Shown here: one piece after another, positions 27,108 to 62,419 of the stretch
Numbering within the stretch: position 1 is the first letter of the stretch
Layout of the letters: each line of letters starts with the position of its first letter
NCBI GenBank assembly: GCA_963668175.1
Contig: OY764159.1
Span: 2,752,001 to 2,816,000 of the forward strand
Source of the DNA: Syntrophales bacterium
Lineage (GTDB): Bacteria > Desulfobacterota > Syntrophia > Syntrophales > PHBD01
Length of the DNA stretch: 64,000 nt
Direction: 5' to 3'
Program-made: the position numbers and the translations under genes
The notes under the pieces: model-generated
What the model was told of the DNA's origin: nothing
What the model saw: the letters and a program-made list of their open reading frames with translations, nothing else
Databases searched by the model: none

Positions 27108-27116
27108 CGCTTGGCC

Positions 27117-44449: not shown

Positions 44450-44478
44450 TTGACAATATAACTATTATCCTCTATAAT
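44450..44478 (+). promoter_or_regulatory. Consensus sigma70 promoter of the toxin/immunity array
   Basis: TTGACA 44450-44455, 17 nt, TATAAT 44473-44478. Confidence 0.8.
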
Positions 44479-44593
44479 ATCGGTACGATAAAACACCTGA
44501 GCAAAATAGCAGGAAAGGCGTTCGGAACGATTCGTGTGATGAAGAGAGACGCAAGTTGAGGGAAAGGGTTCGGTCAGCGAAAGGCGATAAACG

Positions 44594-45148
44594 ATGAATT
44601 CTAAATTGAAGCGGCTGTTTGCATGGAAAAATCGAATTCTTAAGGGTTTCACGCTCTGGCCGACCATTGTGGTGCTATTGTATTTTTTAGAGAGGTGGGT
44701 TTTTTATTATCACGACTATGATTTTTTATTATTTGTCATATTTCTGTTCATATTTCCGGCAGTCTGTTTTATTTGTGCGCTGGTGTTGCTCGTAGTGAGA
44801 AAACCAAAGTCATCTTTATCCTTTCTTACACCCGCGTTGCTTGTGGTCTTTATGTTTTCTTCGTGGGGCGATCCTGTCAGAGATAATTACTACGCTTCAC
44901 GCCACTATGTTGAATTCCAAATCCAGAAAAGATTCTATTTCCCGGAGATGAACGAACCCGATAAGCTGCCCCCTTACAAAGAATGGCCTCTTAACAAGGC
45001 ACGGAGAACTTCAGAGTATACCATCATCTATAATTTGAAAGACTCTGTCGACGAAATAGAAAGACATAAGAAGTACATCAAGAATGGCTGCGGCTACAAT
45101 GTGACTGGAGTCGGCAAACACTTTTATATGCTGGCAGAATGTAAATAG
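44594..45148 (+). CDS. Putative immunity protein 1a (membrane-anchored)
   Basis: 184 aa, AT-rich, N-terminal TM segments plus soluble tail; paralog of 45285..45862. Confidence 0.65.
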   Translation: MNSKLKRLFAWKNRILKGFTLWPTIVVLLYFLERWVFYYHDYDFLLFVIFLFIFPAVCFICALVLLVVRKPKSSLSFLTPALLVVFMFSSWGDPVRDNYYASRHYVEFQIQKRFYFPEMNEPDKLPPYKEWPLNKARRTSEYTIIYNLKDSVDEIERHKKYIKNGCGYNVTGVGKHFYMLAECK

Positions 45149-45176
45149 AATGACAGAATAAAAGGAGGGCTGGAAG

Positions 45177-45281
45177 ATGGGACGGTACGGAACAGATCAT
45201 TTCTTTGTTAAAGATGAAGACAAAAAGGAAGTTGCGGCAAAGTATCTTAAAGACGCAAATGCACTCTGCGAAAGGCGATAA
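45177..45281 (+). pseudogene. 5' remnant of an effector-1 paralog
   Basis: MGRYGTDHFFVKDEDKKEVAAKYLKDAN is nearly identical to the start of 45894; similarity ends at 45261. Confidence 0.85.
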
Positions 45282-45284
45282 ACG

Positions 45285-45862
45285 ATGACTTCTAAATTGA
45301 GGCGTCTGTTTGCATGGAAAAATCGAATTCTTAAGGGTTTCACGCTTTGGCCGACCATCGTGATGTTGTCGTTTCTCTTGGAAGAGTGGGTATTTTATTA
45401 TCGCGACATTTATGATATCGGAATTCCTTTAGTCGTTATATTGGTGTTAATATTCCCGGCAGTCTGTTTTATTTGGGCGCTGGTTTTGCTCGGAAGAAAA
45501 AAAAACCGAAGTCGTCTTTATCCTTTCTTACCCCGGCATTGCCTCTGGTCTTTTTTTTATTTTCTCCATGGAGTGATCCTGTCAGAGATATTTTCTCCGA
45601 TTCGCGCCACTATGTTGAATTCCAAATCCAGAAAAGCTTTTATTTCCCGGAAATGAACGAACCCGATAAGCTGCCTCCCTACAAAGAATGGCTTATCAAA
45701 GAGCGTCATAATGTCTCTACGTATTCAATCGTTTACGATTCAAATGACTCCCTGAATGAGAGAGAAAAGAAAAAAGCAGAATTGCATGGCCCTCAACAAT
45801 GGGGTTACAGCATAAAGAAAGTTGGCAAACACTTCTACATGCTGCATGAATTTTATTATTAA
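45285..45862 (+). pseudogene. Putative immunity protein 1b, frameshifted at an A9 tract
   Basis: ORFs 45285..45656 and 45473..45862 together align with 44594..45148; frame switch at the A-run 45497-45505. Confidence 0.8.
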
Positions 45863-45893
45863 AACTGTTTTAAATTAGAAGGAGGGCTGGAAG

Positions 45894-47174
45894 ATGGGTA
45901 GGTACGGAACAGATCATTTCTTTGTTAAAGATGCAAACAAAAAGGACGTTGCGGCAAAGTATCTTAAAGACGCAAATGGAGACTATATTATGAACCGTTC
46001 AACCGGGCGGCCGTATGTCGTCCCGGCCGATTTTAATTTGGACGCAGTGATTGCAAAATACGAAGTCGATCCTCGGACGCTTCCCGATCTGGAAACAAGT
46101 ATGCAAGCACGCGGGGCGTCTTATGCAAAATTGTATGAGAATTTTCAACGCGGGCGGCCGGACGACTTGCAGAGATCCTATAATGGGAAAGTTGACGCCA
46201 CTTGGGTCAAGGACTTTCAGCCGGCAGCCAGCTACGTGTTCGGCGCGGCATGCGCCGCAGCAGGCTTACCCTTGTGGCAATGCAAAGCGGGCGGGGGGGG
46301 CTATAATCTTGGAACGAAAATCTTTGGAGATGGCCCCAAGAATAAAACGTCCGGCGAATTTGGCAACAATCCGGACAATGTTCAACACATCGAACAGGGC
46401 TACCGCAGTCAAACGTCTCCAGATGCTCCAAAGACGACCGGGAAATATGTTCCGGTGGAGGGGGGCGGCATCGATGCGGCGGTCAAAGCCGGGATCTATG
46501 CAGTCGAACCGGGCAATGTCCTTGGCGATATCGCAGCCAAATTTCATACCACCGTTCAAAAAATCATGGAGGCGAATCCCGATATCAAGAATCCGGATTC
46601 GATCCGCCCCGGACAGCGAATCGTATTGCCGAAAGACGACCCCTCCGGCCCCGCCGACAACAAGAAGGACCCCGATCCCGACCGGCAGGGCGCGACAGAC
46701 AAGGGAACGATCAATTCGCAACATAGCCAAAGCATCATCCATGATGGCGGGTTCACACAGATCGCCTCAAGCGCCGGCCCGGATGTTAGCGATAACACCG
46801 CTGCTTCCGCTCCTGCCGATGATGCGCCGGCGGGCTTTCCCGATGCTCCGTTGCGGCATGCGCTGGATGCGCTGGGCGTGAAGCCCCGCGATGTGCAATT
46901 CACCCCGGCGGAGGCGGACGATGAGAAAGAGACGCCGGACTCTTTCGACATCAGAGATAACGACACAGCGGAAAAAATCGGCTCTTATGCGGGAACCCCC
47001 ACCGGCTGCGAAATGACCGTGGGCGACAGGAAGGTCGTAATGGACCGGATGAGCGGTAATGACATTCACCTGCAAACGTATGCCAAAAACGACGATGGAG
47101 ATTTTGAACTCGTTGGGACAACGCGAATCGGCGACAACGACGGGATTACCGTGAGAAGGCCTTTTGCCGCATAG
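45894..47174 (+). CDS. Effector 1: Ntox44-like domain + LysM + conserved C-terminal domain
   Basis: F..G...D.QR....F...A.Y.FG....AAG.P......GG.Y...N...I..GY toxin-like motif; LysM YAVEPG..L..IA.KF......NP.I.NP..I.PGQ.I.LP; CTD 46848-47174. Confidence 0.7.
   Translation: MGRYGTDHFFVKDANKKDVAAKYLKDANGDYIMNRSTGRPYVVPADFNLDAVIAKYEVDPRTLPDLETSMQARGASYAKLYENFQRGRPDDLQRSYNGKVDATWVKDFQPAASYVFGAACAAAGLPLWQCKAGGGGYNLGTKIFGDGPKNKTSGEFGNNPDNVQHIEQGYRSQTSPDAPKTTGKYVPVEGGGIDAAVKAGIYAVEPGNVLGDIAAKFHTTVQKIMEANPDIKNPDSIRPGQRIVLPKDDPSGPADNKKDPDPDRQGATDKGTINSQHSQSIIHDGGFTQIASSAGPDVSDNTAASAPADDAPAGFPDAPLRHALDALGVKPRDVQFTPAEADDEKETPDSFDIRDNDTAEKIGSYAGTPTGCEMTVGDRKVVMDRMSGNDIHLQTYAKNDDGDFELVGTTRIGDNDGITVRRPFAA
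46848..47174 (+). repeat. Conserved C-terminal domain, copy 1 of 5
   Basis: PLRHA..ALG...EKIGS...TPTGCEMT.GDRKVVMD..SG.D..L.TYAKND.G...L.G.TRIGDNDG.T.RRPF. Confidence 0.95.
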
Positions 47175-47333
47175 TGCCGCGTCGTCCGGCGGACGCCGCC
47201 GGGCGGCGCACGGCAACGCCATGGCCGGTTAGCGGTTTTCCCCATTTGGGATACCCGGACGGCGGATGAAAGGAACCCGGGCCGGAAAAAAAGTGACGAG
47301 AGCGTGCAGGATACTAACTTTCGGAGGTGGAAG

Positions 47334-48179
47334 ATGGGACGTTTGAGGATGCCGGCCATATGCGCAGTAGCGCTTTTCATGACGATGTTGTTGTATTCGA
47401 CGGCGTCGGCCGCAGGCACCGACGTCGTTTACGTTGCGAAAGACATCGAATACGTCGGGAAAAAGACGTTACCTCTGCAGGAGGTCTTCGGCACGCCGGA
47501 GCCGTGGCATGTTACGGTCCAGGAAGATAAGGATATCGACGAATGGGATTACTTCATGGATCCCAAGGCCACGGACAGACCGGCGCGAATATGTTTCTGG
47601 GCCGATCCGGATAAGAAAGATCGGAAATGCGAAATTGCTGCGTTGAAATTATGCTTTCGTACCCCAAAGGGTCTCTCGTGCGAACCCACCTATACGTTCC
47701 AGTTTTTTGAGGACATGAAAGTTATCGATCTGAAAAAGGCCGGAAAGCCCCGCCAGGGCATTCTCTTTACCATAGTAAATAGAGGATATCACCTTAGCTG
47801 GGCGAGGCATCGACATCTCACCCTTTTCTCCATATGGGTTTACGACGAGAAAAAAGAAGCTTTCAAGAGAGCCCTTGAAGTCGCGCTCACGGAGCAGGGA
47901 GAGTTTAAATACGAGTTTCCCCCCTCCGCCAAGCTGGATGGCATCGCCGTCGGCGCCGACTTCTTTTGGGACATGAGCGATCCTGATGAGCATCGTTATG
48001 GTAAGCATTGGTATATCATCGAAATTTACAGATTGATGGGGAAGGGAATCTACAAATGGATCGGCGCGTATAGGACAGACAAAAAATACCAGAGTATGGC
48101 CGATAGCGAAGACAGTGTTATTGAACAGGAACTTGGCATCATCAGGAAGGTTGTAAGGAAAAAAGCAAAACAGAAATAG
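47334..48179 (+). CDS. Putative immunity protein 2 (exported)
   Basis: Sec signal peptide (ASA); ends 9 nt before effector 2. Confidence 0.65.
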   Translation: MGRLRMPAICAVALFMTMLLYSTASAAGTDVVYVAKDIEYVGKKTLPLQEVFGTPEPWHVTVQEDKDIDEWDYFMDPKATDRPARICFWADPDKKDRKCEIAALKLCFRTPKGLSCEPTYTFQFFEDMKVIDLKKAGKPRQGILFTIVNRGYHLSWARHRHLTLFSIWVYDEKKEAFKRALEVALTEQGEFKYEFPPSAKLDGIAVGADFFWDMSDPDEHRYGKHWYIIEIYRLMGKGIYKWIGAYRTDKKYQSMADSEDSVIEQELGIIRKVVRKKAKQK

Positions 48180-48188
48180 GAGTGAGAA

Positions 48189-49355
48189 ATGACAAGCAGC
48201 GAGTTCAAGCCGAGCAAATTCAAGGCAGAGGGAATTGAGGGGAACAGTATTGCAACATACTATGACTATGAGAACGGAACGAAACTGGAGATAAAGGGCG
48301 CGGTTCCTGCGGTGCGCTTTAATAACCCGGGCAATATCGCCTGCAATGATCTCAACGATAAGACGGGAAGATGGGTTTCAAGTCAGGGAGCGATCGGTTG
48401 CGCGCAAGGCCGGGCCGTCTTCCCGGACGTCGAGACGGGTTCTCAAGCGATGAGGAACAACCTTGAACGTAAATTTGGGGATTATACGGTTCGCGACATG
48501 CTCTTCGGCGAATACGAATACAACTATGGTCCCGATAAAGTGACACCCGTCAGCATCAAGAAAACGATCAGAGCCGGATACTGCCCCGAGTGGTACCCGG
48601 ACAAGAAGGGAGTCCTTCGGCGTCAGGATACGGAGTCTTACGCGCGGCTTCTCGAAAAGGGTTCCGATGCCAAGGAGACCGACGACCTCAAATCGTAGCC
48701 TATCAACGAACTCGGCAGCAAAATATTCGAGAAGGTTATTCAGAAGATGAAGACGCACGAAGGCTTCTTCAGCCCGCGTAATCAGGGAACGAAAACGTTT
48801 TACGAAAAAGATGGAAAAGTCATCAAACTGAACGAACTGGATAAGAATCTTCGGGAGGGCATTACTCCGGAAAAACCGACCATGATAGCGTATGCCAACG
48901 GCGTGCATACCGATGCGCCCGACGCGGGGAAGACTCTTGAGAATGTTGAAGCAGGATTATCTGGAAAACTGTTGCCCGCAAATATCGACACGGATGGAAC
49001 GGCCGGTTTGCTCGACGCCCCGAATGCTCCGTTGCGGCACGCGATGGCTGCTCTGGGATTGAAGCCCGAAGAAGTGCATATAACCCCGGCGGAGGCGGAC
49101 GATGAGAAGGAGACATCGGAATCCCTCGAGATCAGAGATAACGACACAGCGGAAAAAATCGGCTCTTATGCGGGAACCCCCACCGGTTGCGAAATGACCG
49201 CAGGCGACAGGAAGGTCGTGATGGACCGGATAAGCGGCAGCGACGTCAGCCTGCAAACATACGCCAAAAACGACGAAGGAGAATATGAACTCCTGGGGAC
49301 GACACGAATCGGCGACAACGACGGGGTGACCCTGCGACGGCCGTTTCCGGGATAG
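48189..49355 (+). pseudogene. Effector 2: NNPGN lysozyme-like domain + conserved C-terminal domain, interrupted by an in-frame TAG
   Basis: ORFs 48189..48698 and 48747..49355 share a frame and are separated only by TAG 48696-48698; RFNNPGNI...AVFP..E.G..A...L...Y.P...Y motif. Confidence 0.8.
49029..49355 (+). repeat. Conserved C-terminal domain, copy 2
   Basis: Same motif; high nucleotide identity to copies 1 and 3. Confidence 0.95.
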
Positions 49356-49554: not shown

Positions 49555-49770
49555 TCGATGATACCAACGATAGAGCGACATGACGGGCGATATAGCGGCA
49601 ATCCATGTGAATATGCTAGAGACGTCGGATCACGGACATCGCTTGTATGAAAATTAAGGCACGTATCCAGACGGCTTTAAGGAGTGATCACTTTTATCGA
49701 CAAATCGATCTGCAGTGGTTCGCTATGATGTGCAAAGGATAATACATTTTTCGGGTCAAGCAACAATGGT
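49555..49770 (+). pseudogene. Decayed 3' remnant of an immunity-3 paralog
   Basis: GATGATACCAA..ATAGAGCG and CAAATCGATCTGCAGTGGTTC..TATG.TGTG blocks also occur at the 3' end of 50133..50789. Confidence 0.65.
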
Positions 49771-49842
49771 GCATGGGCATGCGTAATCCCGGTCATTGAT
49801 ATTCAGTGTATTGAAGAGAAGATTTAGGAAAGAGTGTAGAAA

Positions 49843-50073
49843 ATGAGTGGAGAGAAACAGACTACCATATGGGAACCAAAAACCTTTGATTGCATCAGAC
49901 AGAACAGTTCTATTTTTAAATCCGTTGCAGAACGGATAGGAATCCCCCCGGAAGCCCTCGCCGGCGCCATGGCAAGAGAGAATAACGCCTATAACCATCA
50001 TAGAGGCCGGGAAATATTCATGGACATATGGGCCTTAAAGTGTGTTCCGAACGTGGCGGCGTCATTTATTTAG
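49843..50073 (+). pseudogene. 5' remnant of an effector-3 paralog
   Basis: WEPKT.DCIRQNSSIFKSVA.R.GI..EALAGAMA.ENN.Y shared with 50877..52454; truncated at 76 aa. Confidence 0.85.
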
Positions 50074-50132
50074 GTTGCGGCAAGGGAGATTCACGGTAGG
50101 AGAAATCATAAAATCTCAGGGATGCCGAAATA

Positions 50133-50789
50133 ATGAAAATGAAGAAATCGCTGAAAGTTGTTCTGCTTTCGATAATAGGGGTCCTTTGGCTGGTCATCGT
50201 GTTGCTGTTGGCGCTTGTGACCGCCGTGGCCGATCATGAGATTGATCTTTACGCATTGTTAAGACCGCTCCCCAGCGATGACGAGATGATCGCGAATTTC
50301 TATGACAATAAGGATGACTTTGAGAAACTTGTCCAAATTTACTACACAGATCCGTCGAATCGATTTTATGGGTCTAAGGCGATGTCTACGCCGGAAGTGA
50401 AAGCCGTCATGAGGCGCGCAAAGGTCTATGGCATAGCAGGCGATGGGGATTTTTGGGTGCCTCCCGACCCTTACAATGAAGAGGCGCGCGATCGGAGTTT
50501 TCGTTCAGGTGAATTAGAAAGGCATCGTGACGGTATCGACTTTCATTACAAACATAAGCGCGTAACAGTCGGAATTGAGAAGTTCGACGATCTGCATAAA
50601 TATTACTATTACGCACCGATGATACCAAAAATAGAGCGCTACCCCGGCGAGCCGTACGATGTATTATTGACGCCTACTCATCATCATCGATTGTATAAAA
50701 GCCTGGACAGGTGGCCTGCCGATCTCCTCCCGCCCGATTGCGTTTACCGGCAAATCGATCTGCAGTGGTTCATTATGGTGTGTCGATAA
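50133..50789 (+). CDS. Putative immunity protein 3 (N-terminal membrane anchor)
   Basis: One TM helix, PSD.EMIA.F......FE.LV start and I...W C-terminal motif; directly upstream of effector 3. Confidence 0.65.
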   Translation: MKMKKSLKVVLLSIIGVLWLVIVLLLALVTAVADHEIDLYALLRPLPSDDEMIANFYDNKDDFEKLVQIYYTDPSNRFYGSKAMSTPEVKAVMRRAKVYGIAGDGDFWVPPDPYNEEARDRSFRSGELERHRDGIDFHYKHKRVTVGIEKFDDLHKYYYYAPMIPKIERYPGEPYDVLLTPTHHHRLYKSLDRWPADLLPPDCVYRQIDLQWFIMVCR

Positions 50790-50876
50790 TAATATTTTCA
50801 GAGCGTGCAACAATGGTTCACGGACATTTGTAAGATAAATTATGACGAAGCGAATTGGATGAAGGAGTTTGGAAAA

Positions 50877-52454
50877 ATGGCCGAAAATGAGAAGTATACC
50901 AAATGGGAACCGAAAACCATGGATTGCATCAGACAAAACAGTTCCATCTTTAAATCCGTTGCCGCCCGGATGGGAATCTCCGCGGAAGCCCTCGCCGGCG
51001 CCATGGCGAAAGAGAACAACCAATACCAACTCAATACAGCGGTGGAAGTATTCAAGGACAGATGGGCTTTAGGAACGATATCCGGTGAAATAGTCGACCA
51101 TGCTCAATGGTCGGCCCAATATGACGCGGTGAAGAAGTCGAACTGGATAGATAACGCAGACAGATTAAGAAAGATAAGAAACCCCATATTGGTTGACCTC
51201 GGCCCTTTCAACCTTCAGGGTGCAACCGCCATCCGGGCCTTGATTAGATATATCCAAGCCAATCCCCATTCGGATCCTTTTGATCTGAAACAGTATCAGG
51301 GAGACTATGCAAAATTCCTGTCCACCATAGCAGGTCCCGATGCGGCGCCGTGGAATACTCTGAACGCCGAAGAGAGCGTAAGGGTGAATGCAATCGTCTG
51401 GGGCATGCAGATAAAACAAGCCCAGGACTGGTTCGAAAAGAAGAAACGGGGCGACGAGCGGTTCGCTAAACTTTGGGACGGGAAGCCGCAGAAGGAAAAA
51501 GACGCATTCTACGCGCAGTGGTGCTTTTTCGGACCTCGAAAAATGGAAGAGAGGTTCGTGGATAATATTAACGACAGCAAGCATCGTGGGACATACAAAC
51601 CGGAACTCGGTGAAGGCGGTTCGGACGTTCATAAGAATGCGGGGGCTATCGGGATCGCGATGGACAATTTCGGCTACGCGGCTGAAGGCCAGAATTCAGA
51701 CTCGGAAAAGACGGCATCCGCCGCCGGCGCTCCCGCCTCCCCATCCAACGCACGTATTACATATAACACCGACGGCACGGTCACCGTCAACAAGGGCGGC
51801 ACGCTCTGGGAAATCTGCGAAGAGCAGAGGAAAAAGGGCAATCCGATCACCCCCGACGATTTGAGGTTGAAAAACAAGAACATCGAGGATGTGGACGATA
51901 CGAGGATTCCCGTCGGCACGAAATTGGTCATTCCCAGACGCCAAGAAGCTGACTCCGCCATTAGCACTGGCGACAAATCTAACGCCGCTGACTATCAGGG
52001 CCATCGTGAAGATCGTAGAAATCTTTTCGGCGGCAGCGATTCAAGCCGCGGAGATATTTACAATACGATTGAAAATGAAGATGACAATCCCCGGGTCATC
52101 TCTAGTGACCCTTCCGTCAGTTCTCCATTGCAGCACGTAATGGATGCGCTGGGAGTGGCGTCCAAAGATGTGCATTTAATCCCGGACGGGGACAATGAAA
52201 ATCCAATGCCGGGGTCCTACAGCATTATGGATAAGAGTACATCGAAAGAAATCGGTTCTTGTTTGATGACTACGACCGGTTGCGAAATGACCGCAGGCGA
52301 CAGGAAGGTCGTGATGGATAAGATAAGCGGCAACGACGTCAGCCTGCAAACATACGCCAAAAACGACGAAGGAGAATATGAACTCCTGGGGACGACACGA
52401 ATCGGCGACAACGACGGGATTACCGTGAGAAGGCCTTTTGCAGGGCTAGCCTGA
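50877..52454 (+). CDS. Effector 3: lysozyme-like domain + LysM-like domain + conserved C-terminal domain
   Basis: AAGGAG RBS and ATG 50877; A...GI..EALAGA.A.E ... D.GP.N motif; V.KG.TLW.I.....L...N.......IPVG.KLVIP; CTD 52125-52454. Confidence 0.7.
   Translation: MAENEKYTKWEPKTMDCIRQNSSIFKSVAARMGISAEALAGAMAKENNQYQLNTAVEVFKDRWALGTISGEIVDHAQWSAQYDAVKKSNWIDNADRLRKIRNPILVDLGPFNLQGATAIRALIRYIQANPHSDPFDLKQYQGDYAKFLSTIAGPDAAPWNTLNAEESVRVNAIVWGMQIKQAQDWFEKKKRGDERFAKLWDGKPQKEKDAFYAQWCFFGPRKMEERFVDNINDSKHRGTYKPELGEGGSDVHKNAGAIGIAMDNFGYAAEGQNSDSEKTASAAGAPASPSNARITYNTDGTVTVNKGGTLWEICEEQRKKGNPITPDDLRLKNKNIEDVDDTRIPVGTKLVIPRRQEADSAISTGDKSNAADYQGHREDRRNLFGGSDSSRGDIYNTIENEDDNPRVISSDPSVSSPLQHVMDALGVASKDVHLIPDGDNENPMPGSYSIMDKSTSKEIGSCLMTTTGCEMTAGDRKVVMDKISGNDVSLQTYAKNDEGEYELLGTTRIGDNDGITVRRPFAGLA
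52125..52454 (+). repeat. Conserved C-terminal domain, copy 3
   Basis: Same motif; followed by a 44-bp block (52449-52492) identical to 55369-55412. Confidence 0.95.
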
Positions 52455-52764
52455 TGCCGGGACAGGCACAGGCCGTCTCAATATTCGCCGCGGCTCAGAA
52501 AGAATGCTCGGTTCAAAGGGATATGTGAAAATGAAAAGCAAGGTATCTCCGCATCGCATTCTTTTGTCTGTAAAGGGCAAATGACCTCATTGTTTTGGCC
52601 CCTGGGGGCTTACCAAAGTTTTTGGAACACCCGCGACGATGGTATTTTACCGAATCAATAATTTACCCCGATACGAGTCGAATTGATGGAAAAATGAATA
52701 TGGGAGGAGCAACGAGAGATTTTTTTATTCGTTGATCAAGCGGGAAGGCATAGGAGGGAAAAAA

Positions 52765-54258
52765 TTGAAAACGAAAGCGATCTTGATAGTGCTGATCTGT
52801 ATTGCCGCCTGCGCCGGCTATCAACAACCTGCCAGGGCATCCGGGGACGCCGCCGTTACATGCCGGAGCGCCAAGGAGTGCGTCGATCGGGGAATTCGCA
52901 AATTCAATGAACGGCAGTACGACTCGGCCATCGCCTATTATACGCGGGCCATCGCGCTTGATCCCGAATATGCCGCCGCGTACGATCGCCGCGCGAATGC
53001 CCATGCCCTCAAACAGGACTATCGCAGCGCCATTGCCGATTATACCGAGGCCATTAGAATCGATCCCGGGTTTGCCGAGGCCTACCATGGGCGCGGGCTT
53101 GCCTACGCGAAAACAGGGGATAGCGACCTCGCCATTGCCGATTACACGGCGGCCATCGACCGCAAGTGGCGGGATGTCGTTCAGTCCTACTATTATCGCG
53201 GCAATGCCTATTATAATGTGGGGAAGAACGATCTCGCCGTTCGCGATTACGATGAAGTCCTTCGCATCGATCCTAAAGCTGCCAACGCCTGCTTCAATCG
53301 CGGCCTTGCATACAAGAGGATGGGGGACGACGCCAGGGCCGCTGCGGATTTCGACAGGGTGATCGCCCTCGATCCGAAACACGCGGAGGCGTACTATTGG
53401 CGCGGCGCTATCTTTCAGAAAAGAAAGGATTACGACCGTGCCGTCGCCGATTTCAGCCAGGCCCTTGCCGTCAATCCGCAGCACGCCAAAGCCCGTCTCG
53501 TCCGGGGGAATGCCTATGCCGAAAAAGGAGACTATAACACCGCCATTGCCGATTATACCCAGGTCATTCTGATGAATCCCGCTTTTGCAGATGCAAGTCT
53601 TAACCGCGGACGCGTTTACATGGAAACCGGGGACGATGCCAGGGCCGTTGCCGATTTCACAAGGATGATCACCCTCGACCCGAAGCACGCGGAGGCGCAC
53701 TATTTGCGCGGACGTATCTATCAGAAAAGAAAGGATTACGACCGTGCCATCGCCGATTTCAGCCAGACCATCGCCTTCAATCCGCAGCACGCGAAAGCCC
53801 GGCTCGCCAGGGGGAATGCCTATGCCGAAAAAGGCGACTATAACAACGCTATCGCGGATTATACCGAGGTCATCCGGATGAATCTTCCGGATAAGTACAA
53901 GGTGGGGGTTATCGTTAATCGCGGCCTTGCATACGAGAAAATGGGGGACGATGCCGGGGCCATTGCCGAGTTCACGAGCGCCATCGCCCTCGATCCGGAA
54001 AATGCGGCCCCATACTATGCCCGCGGGCGCAGCTATCTTAAAATATGGGATTTCGACCGCGCCTTTACGGATTTCAATAAGGCCATTGCCGTCAATCCAC
54101 AGTATCGGGAAGCTTACATGGCCCGCGGCGCTTCCCTCCTGGGGAAGGGGAAATGTGCCGAGGCATGGCGGGACGTGAGGCACGCAGAAGGACTGGGCGA
54201 GATACCAAATCCAAACTTCTATAAGTTCCTCAACGAAAAATGCCCGCCGCAACAGTAG
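52765..54258 (+). CDS. Exported TPR-repeat protein (putative immunity/partner of effector 4)
   Basis: AGGAGG RBS and TTG start; signal peptide; 34-aa AY..RG.AY...G....AIADY..AI..DP repeats. Confidence 0.9.
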   Translation: MKTKAILIVLICIAACAGYQQPARASGDAAVTCRSAKECVDRGIRKFNERQYDSAIAYYTRAIALDPEYAAAYDRRANAHALKQDYRSAIADYTEAIRIDPGFAEAYHGRGLAYAKTGDSDLAIADYTAAIDRKWRDVVQSYYYRGNAYYNVGKNDLAVRDYDEVLRIDPKAANACFNRGLAYKRMGDDARAAADFDRVIALDPKHAEAYYWRGAIFQKRKDYDRAVADFSQALAVNPQHAKARLVRGNAYAEKGDYNTAIADYTQVILMNPAFADASLNRGRVYMETGDDARAVADFTRMITLDPKHAEAHYLRGRIYQKRKDYDRAIADFSQTIAFNPQHAKARLARGNAYAEKGDYNNAIADYTEVIRMNLPDKYKVGVIVNRGLAYEKMGDDAGAIAEFTSAIALDPENAAPYYARGRSYLKIWDFDRAFTDFNKAIAVNPQYREAYMARGASLLGKGKCAEAWRDVRHAEGLGEIPNPNFYKFLNEKCPPQQ

Positions 54259-54516: not shown

Positions 54517-55374
54517 ATGGCAGCAGAAAACAAGAAGAACGATAATGAAAAGACGTTAAAAAAGGGATTTGAAATATTTAATTTTGTGAAAGATATCGCA
54601 AGCAAGACCGGTGACATCCTTGCGACCGGAAATTCCACCGTAAAATTAATCAAAATGGGAGTGGACGGTTCAATGACGGTACTACAGAGTATTCCAAAGT
54701 CGCTACTGGAAGGAGAATTAGTTCCTATTGGCCTTGTAAAAGAACTTGGCACATGGGGTGCTTCCTCCGCAGTCGGCGAGACGATCATTGTAACGGCGGG
54801 CGGTTTGGCATCCGCCGGAGCAGCGACCATTTTAGGGGCGGCAACGCTGACCGCAGCGGCAGGCGCGCTATACGGTGCTTTATGGCAAAAGGTGTATGAG
54901 CATTCGAAGGAGAACCCTATATGGGAAGGCGCGCCCGAGATGAAATACGACGGTATGTATCTGCATGATCCCTCCAAATCCGGAAACGAGATACCAAATG
55001 AAGATGCCATTATGAAGAACTATTCCCTGAACGATCCCGGCAAGCCATTGAAGCATGCATTGACCGCGCTGGGATTGAAACCCGACGAGGTGCATCTAGC
55101 TCCGGCGGCGAGCAATGGGAATTCGACGTCGGAAGCCCTCGCTATAAGGGATAAGGACACATCGGAAAAAATAGGCTCCTGCGTGATGACGCCTGGCGGC
55201 TGCGAAATGACCGCGGGCGACAGGAAGGTCGTGATGGACCGGATAAGCGGCAGCGACATTCATCTGGAAACGTATGCCAAAAACGACGATGGAAAATATA
55301 AACTCCTGGGGCAGACAAGAATCGGCGACAACGACGGGATCACCGTGAGAAGGCCGTTTACGGGGCTCGCCTGA
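54517..55374 (+). CDS. Effector 4: glycine/alanine-zipper hydrophobic domain + conserved C-terminal domain
   Basis: GGLASAGAATILGAATLTAAAGALYGAL segment; CTD 55045-55374. Confidence 0.7.
   Translation: MAAENKKNDNEKTLKKGFEIFNFVKDIASKTGDILATGNSTVKLIKMGVDGSMTVLQSIPKSLLEGELVPIGLVKELGTWGASSAVGETIIVTAGGLASAGAATILGAATLTAAAGALYGALWQKVYEHSKENPIWEGAPEMKYDGMYLHDPSKSGNEIPNEDAIMKNYSLNDPGKPLKHALTALGLKPDEVHLAPAASNGNSTSEALAIRDKDTSEKIGSCVMTPGGCEMTAGDRKVVMDRISGSDIHLETYAKNDDGKYKLLGQTRIGDNDGITVRRPFTGLA
55045..55374 (+). repeat. Conserved C-terminal domain, copy 4
   Basis: Same motif. Confidence 0.95.
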
Positions 55375-55604: not shown

Positions 55605-56507
55605 ATGCCGGCTTTTAAACCGTTTACATGGATTGCGGTTCTCATCGTCATCGCGGTTATTCCCGCGCCTGGATTTGCCGCGCCGCATATCGTTCCGCTT
55701 GACTCCGTGTTCAAAGTGACAGAGGTGCCCTACGAAGGCGGCGAATTAATGATGCCCGGCAAGGATAGCAGCGGCAAAAAGAACGGCGATGGGGAGGAAT
55801 CCTTTTCTCCCGGCTGGAAGAAGCTCTTTCTTAGCGTACCGGGCAGCAAGCGATCATACTTGTTGGACGGAACATGCGTCCATTATGATCGGAACGCAAT
55901 CGACCTCGGCGACGGGCGCATCGTTATGGCGTGCCAATCGGGAGGCAACCATTGCTGCAGCACATACGTGAGCCTGCTGAAGGACAGTAAAAAAGGCACG
56001 CTGAAGGTCGCCGGTTCGAGAACGATCATTCATCCCGAGCTGGGCATAGACAAAGAAAGCATCGGGCCTGTCGATTCCCGGGGAAACCTGAGCATCGAAG
56101 TTCACGGATTTACCGATCGATACGACGACGATATCGAAAAAGCGAGCCACGAACCTTCTTTCATCTATTACATCAAGATCCTTAAGACCGGCCATGTGGC
56201 CGTCGACAGGGACGTTAAAGCGTACGAGAACATCATCGCGAAGCTCAAAACATCGTTGTCGAAATCGTACGATTTCGAGATGTATGTGCAGCTTGTCTTT
56301 TATAACCGTCTTCTCGATCTGAAACTTTCCGAAAACGCCTATCTGAGCAAAGCCTCGGCGTCCGAAAAAGGCGTTGCCGCCCGCGGCGTCAAGTGGATAT
56401 TTGAAGAAATGCCGTTTCTCAGGATTATCAACGACGATGATGGTTTTGCTCTGAAGCCGACCGCCCCGATCTCAGGCCATGACGCTGTTCAAAAAAAGAA
56501 ACGCTGA
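55605..56507 (+). CDS. Exported hypothetical protein (possible orphan immunity protein)
   Basis: GGAGG RBS and ATG 55605; signal peptide (GFA); SGG.HCC motif; no effector downstream. Confidence 0.65.
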   Translation: MPAFKPFTWIAVLIVIAVIPAPGFAAPHIVPLDSVFKVTEVPYEGGELMMPGKDSSGKKNGDGEESFSPGWKKLFLSVPGSKRSYLLDGTCVHYDRNAIDLGDGRIVMACQSGGNHCCSTYVSLLKDSKKGTLKVAGSRTIIHPELGIDKESIGPVDSRGNLSIEVHGFTDRYDDDIEKASHEPSFIYYIKILKTGHVAVDRDVKAYENIIAKLKTSLSKSYDFEMYVQLVFYNRLLDLKLSENAYLSKASASEKGVAARGVKWIFEEMPFLRIINDDDGFALKPTAPISGHDAVQKKKR

Positions 56508-56791
56508 ACAGTGAGGGCATTCGCCCTGCATGGACAATTTAGACCATTTGCGCGGACACGACGGCCCGGGAAAGGGCAGGGCTGGTAGCGTTCCAAGGCA
56601 AAGAGCAAACAACGCCGACTGCGCCCGCAATGCCTTTCTGACGGGCGTTACGATAGATTGAGGAATGCCGGCCGGGAGAGTCGGAAAATCCGCCGCCATT
56701 TAATCGGCCGGCCGATCCCTACCCAAAAGCCGGTGCAATTGACATGCTGAAATCGATCCTTACATTAAGGGTAAGGGGAAGGAGGTGCGTT

Positions 56792-57301
56792 ATGATCGAT
56801 TCAGCGAATGCCATCTCCACGAATCCGGTTTTAGCCGCGATCGCCGCAAACGCCCTGCAAATACGAGCGATTGCCGATCTCCCTCCAACTTACAGTGCGC
56901 AGTTTTCGGATACGGTGACTGTTTCCCGGGCGGCAACCGATTTGGCCGATGCCCTGAAGACTCAAAATACCGACGATTTTGCCCGGCAATTGGCGAACGC
57001 TGCCGATCAGGCGGCAGCGGGAACAACTGCGACGCAGGATCAGGTGCAGGCGAACGATCGACTTTCTCTGGACACGGCTGAGCAATTTCTGGATACGGTG
57101 GCGGCTGAAGACGTTTTGGCAAACGACCTCCAGGCGCAGAAAGACAGGGATTATGCCCAACTGTTGGCGGATATTGCGAATCTGACGGCAACGGAAACGG
57201 TCGCGACCCAAAATATGGAGATCGACAGCGCCGCTTATTCCATGGCGTCGGCGAACAGATACCGGCAGAGAAGGGTCTCTCTGAAGGACCTGAAAATCTA
57301 A
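56792..57301 (+). CDS. Hypothetical Ala/Asp/Gln-rich protein
   Basis: GGAGG RBS; possible TTGACA-16-TACATT promoter at 56739-56766; DTVTVS.AA motif and internal repeat. Confidence 0.6.
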   Translation: MIDSANAISTNPVLAAIAANALQIRAIADLPPTYSAQFSDTVTVSRAATDLADALKTQNTDDFARQLANAADQAAAGTTATQDQVQANDRLSLDTAEQFLDTVAAEDVLANDLQAQKDRDYAQLLADIANLTATETVATQNMEIDSAAYSMASANRYRQRRVSLKDLKI

Positions 57302-57614: not shown

Positions 57615-57648
57615 AAAAAAAGAGGCCGGGGGTTTAGCCCCGGCCTCG
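57615..57648 (-). terminator. Rho-independent terminator of the flavocytochrome gene
   Basis: A-tract then GAGGCCGGGG-gtttag-CCCCGGCCTC. Confidence 0.8.
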
Positions 57649-57673
57649 ATGCAGCATAAGTTAGGTTAAAGGA

Positions 57674-59230: not shown

Positions 59231-59956
59231 GCAAACCTCCTGCCTTTCAATCGATGTTGGTGGTGAATGATCCCGCCTGCGCGGCGGTAAGTCTAATCCG
59301 TTGGTGAACCATTCTGATTGCCGGGGTATCTCCTTTCGTTGACGATGATTGCTTCAATGCTTGCGCGATTGATCCATCCGTCGCTCCGTCTGCGGTCCCC
59401 TCATGAAACAGCCACCCGCTATTCACCACCACCGCAAAGAGGTTCTTTGCTGCCGATGCCCCTTTGAAAACGTCCCCGCGCGGATGCCCCTAACATCCCC
59501 GCGGCCCTGAAATGATCTCACGGGTAAAAAAGCGGTCCCGGAAAACACAAAACCCCGCCTCTGGAAAGAGAGACGGGGTTTCGAATATTCCTGCATAACG
59601 CGCTTTCGTAAAGACGGTTCTGGAGCCGGTTAACGATGTCCACTTTAATGCCTTTTCTGACATATTAAAGCAAAATGCACAAAATTGCCAAGACAATTTT
59701 TCGCCCCCTGCCGGCGTGACCGGCGAAAAAGAGCGATCCATTTTCCGGCCGGTTCGTTACAATTGCCGATCATACGGGACTTTCGAAGGCGGGTACGGCC
59801 AAGGCCGGACGTAACCGGTTATCCGGGAAACCGCGAAAACGTCCGGTTCCATCTATCGCTTCAAAAACAGAAATGCTGGAATATTGTAATGCAAGATGAT
59901 TCTTCTGCAATTCCCTTAATATCAGTATGTTATGATTATATTATACCATATTCTTA

Positions 59957-59985
59957 TTGACATCTATAGGAAAATATATTATAAT
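59957..59985 (+). promoter_or_regulatory. Consensus sigma70 promoter of the fifth immunity/effector pair
   Basis: TTGACA 59957-59962, 17 nt, TATAAT 59980-59985. Confidence 0.8.
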
Positions 59986-60055
59986 TTCGGCATGATAACA
60001 CAGAGCGGCCGGACAGGACAGAAGGCGTTCGGACCGTTGGCTGTCTAAAAGGGGG

Positions 60056-61168
60056 ATGCACAAGATGAACGGAAGAAATACAGGGGCGAACAGGATTATA
60101 CCAATCATTTTGATCGTATGGGTATGCATCGCTGTGTCCGCAGGCGACGCAGGATCAACCGACAGCTATTTCCCTTGCCCCGTTTATGTCAACGCAGGTC
60201 TCAAGGGCAAGCTCCGTCACGTGAAAAAATGGGGTTATATGGACATCCATGAAAAGATCGTCATCAAGCCGCGTTTTAAGGAAGCGTGGAGTTTCAGCGA
60301 AGGGCTGGCCCATGCGATGAATGCCAGATATAAATACGGCTTCATCGATCTTAAGGGGAATTGGGCCGTCAAGCCGCAATTCGACAACGTGAGAAGTTTC
60401 CGTGAGGGCATGGCGGCGGTTTCAATCAAAAGGAAATATGGGTTTGTCGATAAAACGGGCCGGCTCGTCGTCCCGCTTGTCTATGATAACGCTATGGACT
60501 TCCGCGAAGGCCTGGCCCTAGTTGCGGACAACGACAAATGGGGTTTTGTAGATAAAACGGGCCGGGTGGTCGTCCCGCTCATATACGACGAACATGTCTC
60601 GTGCTTCCGCGAAGGTCTGGCCTGTTTTAAGGAAAACAAGAAATACGGTTTCATGGATAAAAAAGGGCAGGTTGTCATTCCGGCGCAGTTCGACAGGGTC
60701 TTGTATGGCTTCAGCGAAGGCCTGGCAGGCGTTCAGATTAACGGGAAATGGGGTTTCATCGACCGCTTCGGCCGGATCGTCATCGAGCCGAAATTCGACA
60801 GGGCCGGGAGGACGGTCATGTTCCGGGAAGGGCTTGCCGCCGTGAAAATCGACGGCAAGTGCGGCTTCATCGACAAGACGGGAGCTATCCGGATCAAGCC
60901 CGATTACAGTTATGCGTTCGACTTTTCCGAGGGGTTCGCGACGGTGACTTTTGATGATGGTACGGACGCTTATATCGACAAATCGGGAAACATCGTCATC
61001 AGGATTGAGGAAAATAAGGGGACTGCATATTGGGAAGGCGATTTCCGCAAAGAAGGCGTAGCGAAAATATGTTTTAACGATTCCAAATATTCGGCAGAGG
61101 ATTGCGGATTCATCAATCGTCAGGGGATATTTGTCATTCAACCTAAATACAATTCCATTCATAATTAA
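60056..61168 (+). CDS. Exported WG-repeat protein (putative immunity protein 5)
   Basis: Signal peptide; repeated F.EGLA.V....K(W/Y)GF.DK.G..VI.P.(F/Y)D units. Confidence 0.9.
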   Translation: MHKMNGRNTGANRIIPIILIVWVCIAVSAGDAGSTDSYFPCPVYVNAGLKGKLRHVKKWGYMDIHEKIVIKPRFKEAWSFSEGLAHAMNARYKYGFIDLKGNWAVKPQFDNVRSFREGMAAVSIKRKYGFVDKTGRLVVPLVYDNAMDFREGLALVADNDKWGFVDKTGRVVVPLIYDEHVSCFREGLACFKENKKYGFMDKKGQVVIPAQFDRVLYGFSEGLAGVQINGKWGFIDRFGRIVIEPKFDRAGRTVMFREGLAAVKIDGKCGFIDKTGAIRIKPDYSYAFDFSEGFATVTFDDGTDAYIDKSGNIVIRIEENKGTAYWEGDFRKEGVAKICFNDSKYSAEDCGFINRQGIFVIQPKYNSIHN

Positions 61169-61192
61169 TTTCTTTGACCAAGGAGGAATAGA

Positions 61193-62419
61193 ATGGCGGG
61201 AACAATTTACAGCAATTTGCAGACCCAAAAACAGAAAGACTGGTACCGTGGCATTGCTCTATTCGGAGACAAGAAAGAAATACCGCTGGATGTGATCAAT
61301 GCCGTGCTCCTGCTCGGGAATCTCGAATCTCGCGGTTTTAGACCGGAGGCGGAGAGCGGTACCGGGGCTTCGGGACTGTTTCAGTATATGGAAGGAAGGT
61401 GGACGGACATCACAGACAAAAATAAAAAGAATAAATTGTATTACGATACTTACAACCAAATGATCGATTGGGGATACAATCCAGCGAGACGCGAGAGGGA
61501 GAATCCGGCCGATCAGGTAATCGTCGTATACGCGGAGGTAGCGAGTTATACGAAGGAATTCAATTCAGCGACTAAACCCCGTGGAAAACGCAACTCGGAT
61601 TATAAGAATGCGTGGAACGCTTACGATAAGGCATGTAAAGGATTGGGGAAGGACTGCCCCACCGATCCCTATGAGAGATACATCCTGTTTGTCCAGGCGG
61701 CTCACCACGGACCGAGCAATATTCAGGAAGTGATAACCGGCTGGAAAAAGCAAATACTACCCAATATCAAGGACAATTTAGAATTTCTGAAATCGAAACG
61801 CAAAGAATGGAACCTGAAGGTCTCCCAGGACGATACGGAGGCTGAAACCGACAAGGTTGCCGAGGCGGCAGAACGGGATTCCGGGCGGACAGCGTCGGCT
61901 GCGCAACCGGACGATGCGTATTCGACCGAAGACAGGAAGAGAAAAGACCTCGCTGCGGGAGACGACGCCGAAGCTGAAACGGCGAGAAGAGGCGACGATG
62001 CGGGCGACCGGGATACCGACGATTCCATGAACAGACAGGGCGGCGTTCCCGCGACGGCCGCGAACGGTTCGTCCGTGGGCATTCCCGATGCTCCATGGCG
62101 GCACGCGATGGACGCGCTCGGAGTAACGTCCAGTGAGATACATTTAACCCCAGCGGATAACAGGAATTTAACGTCGGACTCCTTCGAGATCAGAGATAAC
62201 GACTCATCGGAAAAGATCGGTTCTTGTATGATGACTCCCACCGGCTGCGAAATGACAGCGGGCGACAGGAAGGTCGTGATGGATAAGATAAGCGGCAACG
62301 ACGTCAGCGTGGAAACATACGCCCAAAACGACGATGGAGAATATGAACTCCTGGGGACGACAAGAATCGGCGACAACGACGGCATAACGGTGAGAAGGCT
62401 GTGGACGGGGTTTGCGTGA
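61193..62419 (+). CDS. Effector 5: SLT/lysozyme-like domain + conserved C-terminal domain
   Basis: AAGGAGG RBS; ES..F.P.A....GA.GLFQ transglycosylase motif, AHHGP; CTD 62093-62419. Confidence 0.75.
   Translation: MAGTIYSNLQTQKQKDWYRGIALFGDKKEIPLDVINAVLLLGNLESRGFRPEAESGTGASGLFQYMEGRWTDITDKNKKNKLYYDTYNQMIDWGYNPARRERENPADQVIVVYAEVASYTKEFNSATKPRGKRNSDYKNAWNAYDKACKGLGKDCPTDPYERYILFVQAAHHGPSNIQEVITGWKKQILPNIKDNLEFLKSKRKEWNLKVSQDDTEAETDKVAEAAERDSGRTASAAQPDDAYSTEDRKRKDLAAGDDAEAETARRGDDAGDRDTDDSMNRQGGVPATAANGSSVGIPDAPWRHAMDALGVTSSEIHLTPADNRNLTSDSFEIRDNDSSEKIGSCMMTPTGCEMTAGDRKVVMDKISGNDVSVETYAQNDDGEYELLGTTRIGDNDGITVRRLWTGFA
62093..62419 (+). repeat. Conserved C-terminal domain, copy 5
   Basis: Same motif, ending VRRLWTGFA. 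Confidence 0.95.

Follow-up and report, generated by a model that had tools for sequence, protein, structure and literature searches.

In Xanthomonas, X-Tfe/X-Tfi pairs combine peptidoglycan-hydrolase N-termini with a C-terminal recognition domain, and the gene for X-Tfi, the immunity protein with a signal peptide or lipobox, is in most cases located upstream and co-transcribed (PMC8740702, PMC6536674). The recognition domain, XVIPCD, packs two helices against a sheet of three strands and ends in an unstructured tail rich in Gln (PMC8740702, PMC6536674). The classical polymorphic toxins (Rhs, CDI, LXG, MafB) join a constant trafficking part to many unrelated toxin modules, with specific immunity genes adjoining and with decayed or orphan modules beside intact ones (Zhang et al. 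2012, PMC3482391).

The locus analyzed here lies in a stretch of 64,000 nt (the window) from a Syntrophales-like host, and it resembles both systems. It shares with the X-Tfe variable N-termini of putatively periplasm-acting types (lysozyme-like, SLT and peptidoglycan-binding domains), effectors without a Sec signal, several pairs per genome, upstream (putative) immunity and a constant C-terminal domain (CTD) of ~110–120 aa. The layout of variable N-terminus, linker, constant CTD and envelope-targeted upstream gene thus bears out the parallel to Xanthomonas T4SS effectors that had been drawn from the sequence alone. With the classical polymorphic toxins it shares the features listed above, and one module is related to their Ntox44; however, the polarity is reversed compared with these toxins (PMC3482391), with the putative toxin N-terminal, the constant part C-terminal and the putative immunity gene upstream, and the orphan remnants are 5′ ends together with the upstream partner.

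The CTD and the five effector genes

When one CTD was used as the query in a tblastn search of the whole window, the domain (~108 aa) was found at the end of exactly five ORFs, and the next-best match had an E value of 5.2.

45894..47174, forward strand: effector 1, 426 aa; Ntox44-related N-terminus, LysM at residues 202–246, acidic linker, CTD at residues 319–426
48189..49355, forward strand: effector 2; domain with an RFNNPGNI motif (residues 1–169), in-frame TAG, linker, CTD at 49029–49352
50877..52454, forward strand: effector 3, 525 aa counted from the ATG at 50877; first ~300 aa unassigned, LysM at the Pfam cut-off, linker, CTD at 52125–52451
54517..55374, forward strand: effector 4, 285 aa; Gly/Ala-rich hydrophobic stretch at about residues 79–125, CTD at 55045–55371
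61193..62419, forward strand: effector 5, 408 aa; SLT-like N-terminus (sub-threshold), acidic linker, CTD at 62093–62416
46848–47171, 49029–49352, 52125–52451, 55045–55371 and 62093–62416, forward strand: CTD copies, tblastn E 1e-71 to 5e-44

The sequence-only reading had claimed that the five ORFs share only their last ~108 aa. The five tblastn matches and the unrelated N-termini agree with this: in an all-versus-all BLASTP of the five full-length effectors, every match with E<0.3 fell within the CTD or the adjoining linker, and the four remaining matches were short (E 0.36–0.70). Also as claimed before, the effectors lack a signal peptide, as no hydrophobic segment was present in the first 50 residues of any of the five.

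Among the five window copies, 47 of the 108 CTD columns are invariant, including Cys, Glu and several Asp. Identity to the first copy is 64–78% in the other four, and purifying selection was found in all ten pairs (dN/dS 0.25–0.62, dS 0.34–0.78). The AlphaFold2 model (pLDDT 80) comprises eight strands and one short helix, and it yielded no significant Foldseek match. No matches were obtained in Pfam, NCBIfam, PHROGs, PADLOC or PDB sequences, and neither these libraries nor Foldseek revealed similarity to any enzyme family or fold or to a solved receptor-binding domain. The CTD, the NNPGN domain of effector 2 and the N-terminus of 50877 were likewise absent from 50,697 phage records searched with tblastn. 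The domain remained unassigned in all of these libraries, as had been stated, with no known family among its matches. The 108-residue CTD is a previously undescribed domain. Low-complexity linkers had been described in front of it, and indeed the 60 aa before each CTD are 67–90% small, polar or charged, with a net charge of –4 to –8.

The family is very rare, with 14 clusters among 1.84 billion representatives. The compiled set contains 30 proteins in all, and the CTD forms the extreme C-terminus of every one of them, so that it is always C-terminal. The 24 members with enough N-terminal sequence for classification fall into eight unrelated classes, which include SLT, NlpC/P60, Ntox44-like and glycine-rich ones, often together with LysM. 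Outside the window, SLT (P0002, 30.8 bits; P0009, 30.4 bits; cut-off 21.3) and NlpC/P60 (P0003, 33.2 bits; cut-off 23) passed the Pfam thresholds, confirming the fusion to diverse N-termini. LysM-plus-linker modules are common to different N-terminal classes, i.e., they are shuffled.

The labels originally given to the N-termini in the window did not fare uniformly, and for three of the five modules nothing was assigned above threshold. Effector 1 had no direct Pfam match to Ntox44; however, its residues 76–138 are 48% identical to P0035, inside the Pfam Ntox44 match of that protein, and the Ntox44-like label holds by transitive homology only. The SLT score of 61193 was 15.8 bits versus a cut-off of 21.3. 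No confirming match was obtained for the NNPGN lysozyme-like label of 48189 in domain, structure and phage-record searches, or for the lysozyme-like label of 50877, whose N-terminal ~300 aa are without a family. The glycine zipper proposed for 54517 has the Gly/Ala-rich composition as its sole basis. LysM had been noted in two effectors; it is clear in 45894 (47.4 bits), whereas the 20.9 bits of 50877 are exactly at the Pfam cut-off. In addition, 48189 is not the one uninterrupted gene that had been assumed, because an in-frame TAG at 48696–48698 breaks it; the CTD-bearing ORF as written is 48747–49355. The homolog P0004 has K at the TAG position. Probably either effector 2 is a pseudogene or a split gene, or the TAG is a sequencing error.

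The CTD differs from XVIPCD: its model has one short helix and eight strands and ends the protein, and the last 30 residues contain only 0–2 Gln in 30 of 30 family members, in contrast to the two helices, three-stranded sheet and Gln-rich tail. Because fold and tail differ, the CTD is not an XVIPCD family member, consistent with the earlier remark that XVIPCD motifs are not visible. The host here is also Syntrophales-like instead of belonging to the Xanthomonadales, Burkholderiales or Neisseriales. Nevertheless, by analogy, the best reading is that the CTD proteins would work like the Xanthomonas XVIPCD effectors. T9SS cargo also carries a beta-rich folded C-terminal sorting domain (about 80–110 aa) on diverse enzymes, requires an N-terminal Sec signal and belongs to Bacteroidota hosts. 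The CTD resembles it as a folded beta-rich C-terminal domain on diverse putative enzymes, but the five effectors have no signal-peptide-like N-terminus, the host is Syntrophales-like, and no Pfam or NCBIfam match was found.

Partner genes, remnants and the low-GC island

A hydrophobic N-terminal segment is present in all five upstream neighbours of the effectors, and in four of the five pairs the distance from partner stop to effector start is 9–87 nt.

44450..44478, forward strand: putative sigma-70-like promoter, 12/12 consensus match, at the left margin of the low-GC island, preceding the first partner
44594..45148, forward strand: partner copy 1 (putative immunity), 184 aa, intact; hydrophobic segments at residues 36–75
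45177..45263, forward strand: effector remnant, first 29 codons of a 45894-like gene, 86% aa identity
45285..45862, forward strand: partner copy 2, directly upstream of 45894; frames 45285–45656 and 45473–45862
47334..48179, forward strand: effector 2 partner, 281 aa; signal-peptide-like N-terminus, stop 10 nt before the effector start
49610..50046, forward strand: degenerate duplicate of the effector 3 unit; 3′ remnant of a 50133-like partner (49610–49736) plus effector remnant
50133..50789, forward strand: effector 3 partner, 218 aa; TM anchor or signal peptide at residues 9–27
52732..54258, forward strand: effector 4 candidate partner with TPR repeats; possible lipobox-like N-terminus, judged by eye; 259 nt upstream
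55605..56507, forward strand: alternative or orphan partner downstream of effector 4; signal-peptide-like N-terminus, 300 aa from an internal ATG
59957..59985, forward strand: second putative sigma-70-like promoter, 12/12 consensus match, upstream of the WG-repeat partner
60056..61168, forward strand: effector 5 partner, 370 aa; signal-peptide-like N-terminus, seven WG beta repeats (PF14903), stop 24 nt before the effector

The claim of an envelope-targeted partner before each effector stood for the hydrophobic N-termini, but the partner of 45894 is frameshifted and that of 54517 is 259 nt away. For 54517 the assignment is ambiguous between the TPR protein upstream and the signal-peptide-like protein downstream. 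That the partners are mutually unrelated was confirmed with tblastn (no match at E<=1e-3), apart from the duplicates 44594 and 45285. In the alignment of the 47334 partner family, several Cys are invariant (C87, C99 and C116), and homologs of this partner and of effector 48189 were found on contigs that are both 3791 nt long.

A tandem duplication of ~700 nt (44574–45261 matching 45265–45978) includes the effector remnant at 45177..45263. Partner copy 1 is an orphan, because only this remnant comes after it; copy 2 is frameshifted at an A9 run (45497–45505), and 44594–45148 is its intact paralogue. The remnant of the effector 3 unit contains the 5′ end of a 50877-like effector (49840–50046, 69 codons, 62% aa identity). 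In each of these two decayed tandem duplicates, partner and effector 5′ end were kept together. The stop codon in one effector and the frameshift in one partner indicate that part of the island may be decaying.

The island (~18 kb) has a G+C content of 0.40–0.59, compared with about 0.56–0.63 in the flanks. Of the 40 neighbourhoods of the flavoprotein gene compared in related genomes, none encodes an island protein, and the island is not core genome. No secretion-apparatus genes, VirB/VirD4 genes included, were seen within the 64-kb window, which counts against a delivery role of the CTD. A podovirus-like element at 1–25 kb of the window contains a capsid gene (PF19821, 265 bits), tail-fibre genes, a gene for a PBECR3 nuclease protein and a match to an internal-virion-protein family; ~20 kb of chemotaxis and two-component genes lie between it and the island.

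Weighing the explanations

We give about an even chance to the reading that the genes are effector-immunity pairs with the CTD as a Sec-independent delivery handle. The known C-terminal export signals are mostly short or in part disordered, and a folded acidic beta domain is unlike them, which counts against this reading. Its main rival, which we regard as rather unlikely, treats the proteins as bacteriocins of the colicin or pesticin type whose domain order is reversed and which are released, e.g., by lysis, rather than through a dedicated secretion machine. The CTD and the disordered linker would then be a receptor-binding/translocation module by which the killing domain at the N-terminus crosses the outer membrane of closely related bacteria, and the upstream periplasmic proteins would be immunity proteins. 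Bacteriocins of this type are modular, have no signal peptide and combine a common uptake module (receptor and translocation domains in colicins) with different killing domains, and immunity to the muramidase-type ones is periplasmic. Effectors without signal peptides, envelope-exposed partners, periplasm-acting modules and one common folded domain with an unstructured linker would all be accounted for; the narrow distribution would suit a strain-level receptor, and apparatus genes are absent from the window. However, known colicin-like bacteriocins have N-terminal uptake modules, a C-terminal killing domain and downstream immunity, the opposite of the order seen here; nothing in the island was recognised as a lysis gene, and the CTD has neither sequence nor fold similarity to them and resembles no solved receptor-binding domain.

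It is less probable still that the proteins are not weapons but enzymes for wall remodelling, either the cell's own or of phage origin (autolysins or lysis cassettes), with the CTD as an envelope-/wall-anchoring or regulatory domain and the partners as regulators or holin-/spanin-like helpers. SLT, NlpC/P60 and LysM modules are typical of autolysins and endolysins, the LysM regions match endolysins in PHROG, the nearest ESM Atlas neighbours of the NNPGN domain are unnamed clusters of phage proteins (score 0.96), and a prophage lies in the same window. Yet the family also has Ntox44-related and Gly-rich membrane modules, which are not wall enzymes, the partners, at 218–508 aa and either globular or built of repeats (TPR, WG), are too large for holins, and the phage records lacked the three regions searched. 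The clustering of five diverse pairs in a low-GC island with decayed duplicates, absent from relatives, also speaks against this possibility. We consider it highly improbable that the CTD loads cargo into a phage-derived particle delivering effectors to other cells, be it the podovirus-like element or a contractile injection system elsewhere. The virion genes and the PBECR3 nuclease protein 20 kb upstream would suit such a particle, and virion-internal proteins with SLT domains are known from podoviruses; but the chemotaxis and two-component genes separate the prophage from the island, nothing resembling the CTD was found in the prophage part or in phage records, and periplasmic immunity partners are unexpected for virion proteins. 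Hardly credible at all is a CTD that is itself toxic or catalytic, with the N-termini as targeting domains. Its 47 invariant columns make it the most conserved part, but one toxin would need one immunity protein, whereas each N-terminal class has an unrelated partner. Furthermore, partner and N-terminal end stay together in the duplication units, known hydrolase and toxin domains are located in the N-termini of family members, and the CTD matched no enzyme family or fold.

According to the preferred reading of effector-immunity pairs with a delivery handle, the ~18-kb island would encode a small antibacterial family with a "reversed" polymorphic-toxin polarity. What the sequences themselves show is the architecture, its conservation, the terminal position of the CTD, the shuffling of modules, the rarity and the lack of a known family; that the proteins are toxic, that the partners confer immunity and that the CTD serves delivery is what we infer. 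Each effector would consist of a variable N-terminal module attacking the cell envelope, a disordered acidic linker and the constant, acidic, beta-rich 108-aa CTD. The modules may be peptidoglycan-hydrolase-like, Ntox44-related or Gly-rich and membrane-inserting, often with an added peptidoglycan-binding LysM domain. The upstream gene product would be periplasm-exposed and specific to the adjoining N-terminal module, and it is likely the cognate immunity protein shielding the producer's own envelope. The CTD would be the common handle that lets a single export or delivery machine, with its genes elsewhere, recognise and deliver the effectors, which have no Sec signal. The five genes thus look like members of a new and rare family of bacterial weapons.

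The C-terminal domain and its distribution

Five genes encoding the shared C-terminal domain (CTD) were recovered from the ORF listing by translation.

CTD-bearing effector genes of the window, all on the plus strand
45894-47174, plus strand, effector 1
48189-49355, plus strand, effector 2
50877-52454, plus strand, effector 3
54517-55374, plus strand, effector 4
61193-62419, plus strand, effector 5

The sequence-only reading had claimed that these proteins are alike only in their last ~108 residues, and tblastn, alignment and all-against-all BLASTP all agreed with it. A tblastn search with one CTD copy detected exactly five copies in the whole window (E 1e-71 to 5e-44) and no sixth, the next match having an E-value of only 5.2. 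The alignment of the last ~108 residues contained 47 invariant columns, and the other four copies were 64–78% identical to the first. BLASTP with the five full effectors revealed no common sequence beyond the CTD and the linker ahead of it. The 60 residues preceding the CTD are acidic, with 67–90% small, polar or charged residues. The CTD is acidic as well (pI 4.5 in four window copies, 6.4 in one), and no tail follows it in the window effectors. For all ten CTD pairs, dN/dS was 0.25–0.62 at a dS of 0.34–0.78, showing that the CTD is a selected protein domain and not a recent DNA repeat.

The claim of five effector genes at the locus held for the five CTD copies, but effector 2 (48189) is interrupted by an in-frame TAG at 48696-48698, which splits it between the toxin module and the linker plus CTD. 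Homologs of this effector have K (P0004) or T (P0017, P0021) at this position, suggesting a simple nonsense change, and decoding of the TAG as pyrrolysine was rejected on the same grounds. Effector 2 could be a pseudogene, a split gene or the product of a sequencing error.

The CTD had been described as unassigned, and indeed it matched no model of Pfam, NCBIfam, PHROGs or PADLOC and no PDB sequence. The family turned out to be small. Among 1.84 billion representative proteins, a profile search gave only 14 convincing clusters, and a word-indexed search of 5.8 billion clusters gave 19 CTD proteins, including four from the window. One of these 19, P0025, is a sixth paralogue, which is encoded on the window's own contig of 4,567,304 nt, outside the window, so that the family is not confined to the island, the ~18-kb region of lower G+C that holds the pairs. 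P0025 has 456 aa with Ntox44-like and LysM modules and shares 56% identity with the effector 1 N-terminus. A scan of 185,579 GTDB species genomes with the CTD profile yielded 46 pattern matches, none of which was confirmed, and tblastn with the CTD had no match in 50,697 phage records or 72,556 plasmid records.

Together with a third search, the profile and word-indexed searches led to a compiled set of 30 CTD proteins. P0015 and P0016, the weakest profile matches (E about 1e-5), were left out; they have 1485 and 2646 aa with 8 and 11 short matching stretches, respectively. The question of whether the CTD is always C-terminal could be answered in the affirmative for the compiled set, as it forms the protein end in 30 of 30 cases, with at most one residue beyond it. 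Three of the 30 are CTD-only fragments of 53–104 aa.

The AlphaFold2 model of the CTD, calculated from 26 sequences (mean pLDDT 79.9, pTM 0.69), predicts one short helix (residues 2–8) followed by eight beta strands. Neither PDB nor BFVD contained a Foldseek match to this model at E<=0.001; the lowest E-value in PDB was 0.055. The top TM-score among the matches listed was 0.46/0.49 for 4r8o (DUF3836), all best scores were below 0.5, and 4r8o was not accepted as the same fold. No PAAR- or transthyretin-like structure was among the matches listed, and a T6SS adaptor fold of this kind was rejected. The ESM Atlas had no usable match to the CTD.

N-terminal modules and upstream partner genes

For the classification of the N-termini, the CTD and the preceding 100 residues were removed, after which 24 of the 30 proteins retained at least 50 residues. 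These 24 fell into eight unrelated BLAST classes, and thus the CTD is fused to diverse N-termini, a point that the sequence-only reading had left to be checked. LysM is present in several family members (Pfam), and LysM-plus-linker modules recur across different N-terminal classes, suggesting that recombination has shuffled them. NlpC/P60 was found above the Pfam cut-off in P0003.

The assignments of individual N-termini did not yield uniform results. LysM (PF01476; cut-off 20.9 bits), which had been noted in two effectors, was clear in 45894 (47.4 bits) and exactly at the cut-off in 50877 (50805/50877, 20.9 bits). An SLT domain (PF01464; gathering cut-off 21.3 bits) had been proposed for 61193, but the match reached only 15.8 bits (E 0.01) and covered only residues 42–78; outside the window, the cut-off was passed by P0002 (30.8 bits) and P0009 (30.4 bits), which fall in another BLAST class than 61193. 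The proposed Ntox44 likeness of 45894 found no direct match to the Pfam model (PF15607; cut-off 24 bits) even at E<=10, but residues 76–138 are 48% identical over 63 residues (E 1e-13) to residues 72–134 of P0035, a stretch that falls inside the Ntox44 match of P0035 itself (30.4 bits). P0035 is named in one source as polymorphic toxin type 44, and it is labelled as a protein of a Pseudomonadota MAG. PMC3482391 counts Ntox44 among the all-alpha toxin domains. The relatives of the effector 1 N-terminus, P0033–P0037, have an N-terminal Ntox44-like module followed by Pro/Ser-rich tails of 150–400 residues and lack the CTD. In this branch of Ntox44, the module may normally sit at the N-terminus, perhaps with a different signal at the C-terminus.

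A lysozyme-like nature had been suggested for the NNPGN module of 48189 and for the N-terminus of 50877, and neither assignment found support. The NNPGN module had no match in Pfam, PDB or phage records, the literature search for the motif returned nothing relevant, and the AF2 model, built from only 4 sequences, was unusable (pLDDT 39.5). Only unnamed phage clusters of the ESM Atlas (0.96) stood out; named families reached 0.76. Likewise, nothing in Pfam, PDB or phage records matched the N-terminal 300 residues of 50877. The glycine zipper proposed for 54517 corresponds to a Gly/Ala-rich hydrophobic stretch, but no family was matched.

The sequence-only reading had further stated that the effectors lack signal peptides, whereas the upstream neighbours carry a signal peptide or a TM anchor, and that these five partners are mutually unrelated. 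Both statements agreed with the results. An N-terminal hydrophobic segment was absent from all five effectors and present in all five upstream neighbours, one of which is frameshifted and another of which lies 259 nt from its effector. In four of the five pairs, 9–87 nt separate the stop of the upstream partner from the start of the effector. The partners showed no mutual relationship; TPR repeats occur in one and WG repeats in another, and the others had no family match. The partners are candidate immunity proteins on the strength of position and localisation alone.

All five effectors are preceded by a partner, as had been claimed, but two cases are qualified. The partner of 54517 is ambiguous, and the partner just upstream of 45894 (45285-45862) is frameshifted at an A9 run (45497-45505), which might reflect decay, a sequencing error or slipped-strand switching; its duplicate at 44594-45148 is intact. 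Two decayed tandem duplications were found, 44574-45261 with 45265-45978 and 49686-50037 with 50736-51071. In each decayed duplicate, the first effector codons are kept alongside the partner or the partner's 3′ end, showing that partner and N-terminal module travel as one unit. Partner 47334 belongs to a family of six in which several cysteines are invariant, a pattern expected of proteins outside the cytoplasm. One 47334 homolog and one homolog of its effector are found on contigs of 3791 nt each; this one match among five database homologs is weak evidence for a conserved linkage.

The island and its surroundings

The G+C content of the island is 0.40–0.59 versus about 0.56–0.63 in the flanks. 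Two perfect sites of the sigma-70 type, which are consensus matches only, precede the first partner and the WG partner. The island's flavoprotein gene shares 85% identity with one in a Syntrophales MAG, and most of its other relatives come from Syntrophales and other Desulfobacterota; this single gene is the basis of the taxonomic placement. None of 40 related flavoprotein loci encoded island proteins. Between the island and the flavoprotein gene there is a 185-aa ORF without family match (56744-57301), a possible gene, with a 10-of-12 promoter-like site (56739-56766) by its start. Rfam and tRNA scans of the window found nothing.

A podovirus-like prophage structural module, including several large ORFs without family, occupies positions 1-25130.

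Features of the prophage region and of the stretch between prophage and island
158-874, prohead protease-like gene
1280-2209, major capsid gene (PF19821, 265 bits)
9869-10510, protein with an internal-virion-protein family match
12976-14697, 574-aa protein with a C-terminal PBECR3 nuclease domain
17103-19142 and 21770-22858, tail and tail-fibre genes
23592-25130, protein with an InlB B-repeat
25095-28838, minus strand, four ORFs in a row without family match on the right-hand margin of the prophage region
27442-27804, minus strand, SdpI-family membrane protein in the same stretch
32145-36203, 559-aa LysM-FecR protein (weak Ig-like match), then a CHASE2 histidine kinase

Elsewhere, SdpI is annotated as a protein for immunity to, and signalling of, a cannibalism toxin. 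The LysM-FecR protein and the histidine kinase may be an envelope-sensing pair.

Comparison with known systems and significance

The simplest account of these genes would be a set of effector-immunity pairs, in which the N-terminal module would damage the envelope of a competitor, the envelope-exposed upstream protein would protect the producer, and the constant CTD would be the part recognised for Sec-independent delivery. According to PMC8740702 and PMC6536674, the X-Tfe/X-Tfi pairs of the bacteria-killing T4SS of Xanthomonas work in the same way, with an envelope-damaging effector, upstream immunity and a constant C-terminal recognition domain, the XVIPCD.

The parallel with the XVIPCD effectors that had been drawn extends to the layout, but not to the domain. 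The XVIPCD is a ~120-aa C-terminal domain on diverse N-termini, comparable to the terminal ~108-aa CTD with its eight classes, and the upstream X-Tfi genes, with signal peptide or lipobox, resemble the putative immunity genes with their hydrophobic segments. In contrast, the XVIPCD as described in PMC8740702 (PDB 7MU9) packs a pair of antiparallel helices against a three-stranded sheet and ends in an unstructured Gln-rich tail, whereas the CTD is predicted to be nearly all-beta and has 0–2 Gln in the last 30 residues in all 30 proteins. 7MU9 was not among the Foldseek matches listed for the CTD model. Judged by predicted fold and by tail, the CTD is not an XVIPCD. The XVIPCD binds the all-alpha domain of VirD4 in genomes with an X-T4SS; no secretion-apparatus genes, including VirB/VirD4, were found within the 64-kb window.

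Classical polymorphic toxins (Zhang et al. 2012) also recombine a constant region with unrelated toxin modules next to a putative immunity gene, but their trafficking part is N-terminal and the toxin C-terminal, the reverse of the arrangement in all 30 CTD proteins. No literature description of such an architecture was found for this lineage. T9SS cargo combines an N-terminal Sec signal with a C-terminal sorting domain; unlike such cargo, the five effectors all lack a hydrophobic segment at the N-terminus, and the CTD has no NCBIfam or Pfam match.

The main rival explanation is that the effectors are colicin- or pesticin-like proteins and that the CTD is an uptake module, and the same facts fit this view. 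Colicin-like bacteriocins have the order translocation, receptor and killing domain, a lysis gene, and immunity downstream. In the island, the domain order is reversed, the partner precedes the effector gene, and matches to lysis-protein families were absent. Less likely is that the proteins are autolysins or parts of a lysis cassette, and the same grade applies to phage cargo. It is also less likely that the CTD is itself the toxin. Returning to the effector-immunity pairs, we consider its most far-reaching version improbable, namely that the CTD is a putative folded, acidic, all-beta recognition domain of an undescribed delivery route, by which syntrophic Desulfobacterota (Syntrophales) would export Sec-independent envelope-attacking effectors, that it is unrelated to XVIPCD/VirD4 and to T9SS, T1SS and T6SS marker domains, and that it represents the first interbacterial weapon defined in the lineage.

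The kind of system, diverse effectors with a common C-terminal handle and upstream immunity genes, is already known. The significance is limited by rarity, with 14 clusters among 1.84 billion representatives, and the functional roles are putative. The lineage consists of obligately syntrophic anaerobes, in which interbacterial antagonism is essentially unexplored, and a full-text literature search found no paper on a Syntrophales secretion system with effector and immunity. If the reading as effector-immunity pairs is right, the CTD would offer a new sequence marker by which antibacterial effectors and the associated immunity genes could be found, would be for this lineage what XVIPCD, MIX or LXG were for theirs, and could serve as bait for the machine that exports these effectors. 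With it, at least four candidate toxin modules and five candidate immunity families come into view, all of them unassigned. Its main interest lies in the access it may give to the delivery system and to new toxin and immunity families in Syntrophales.
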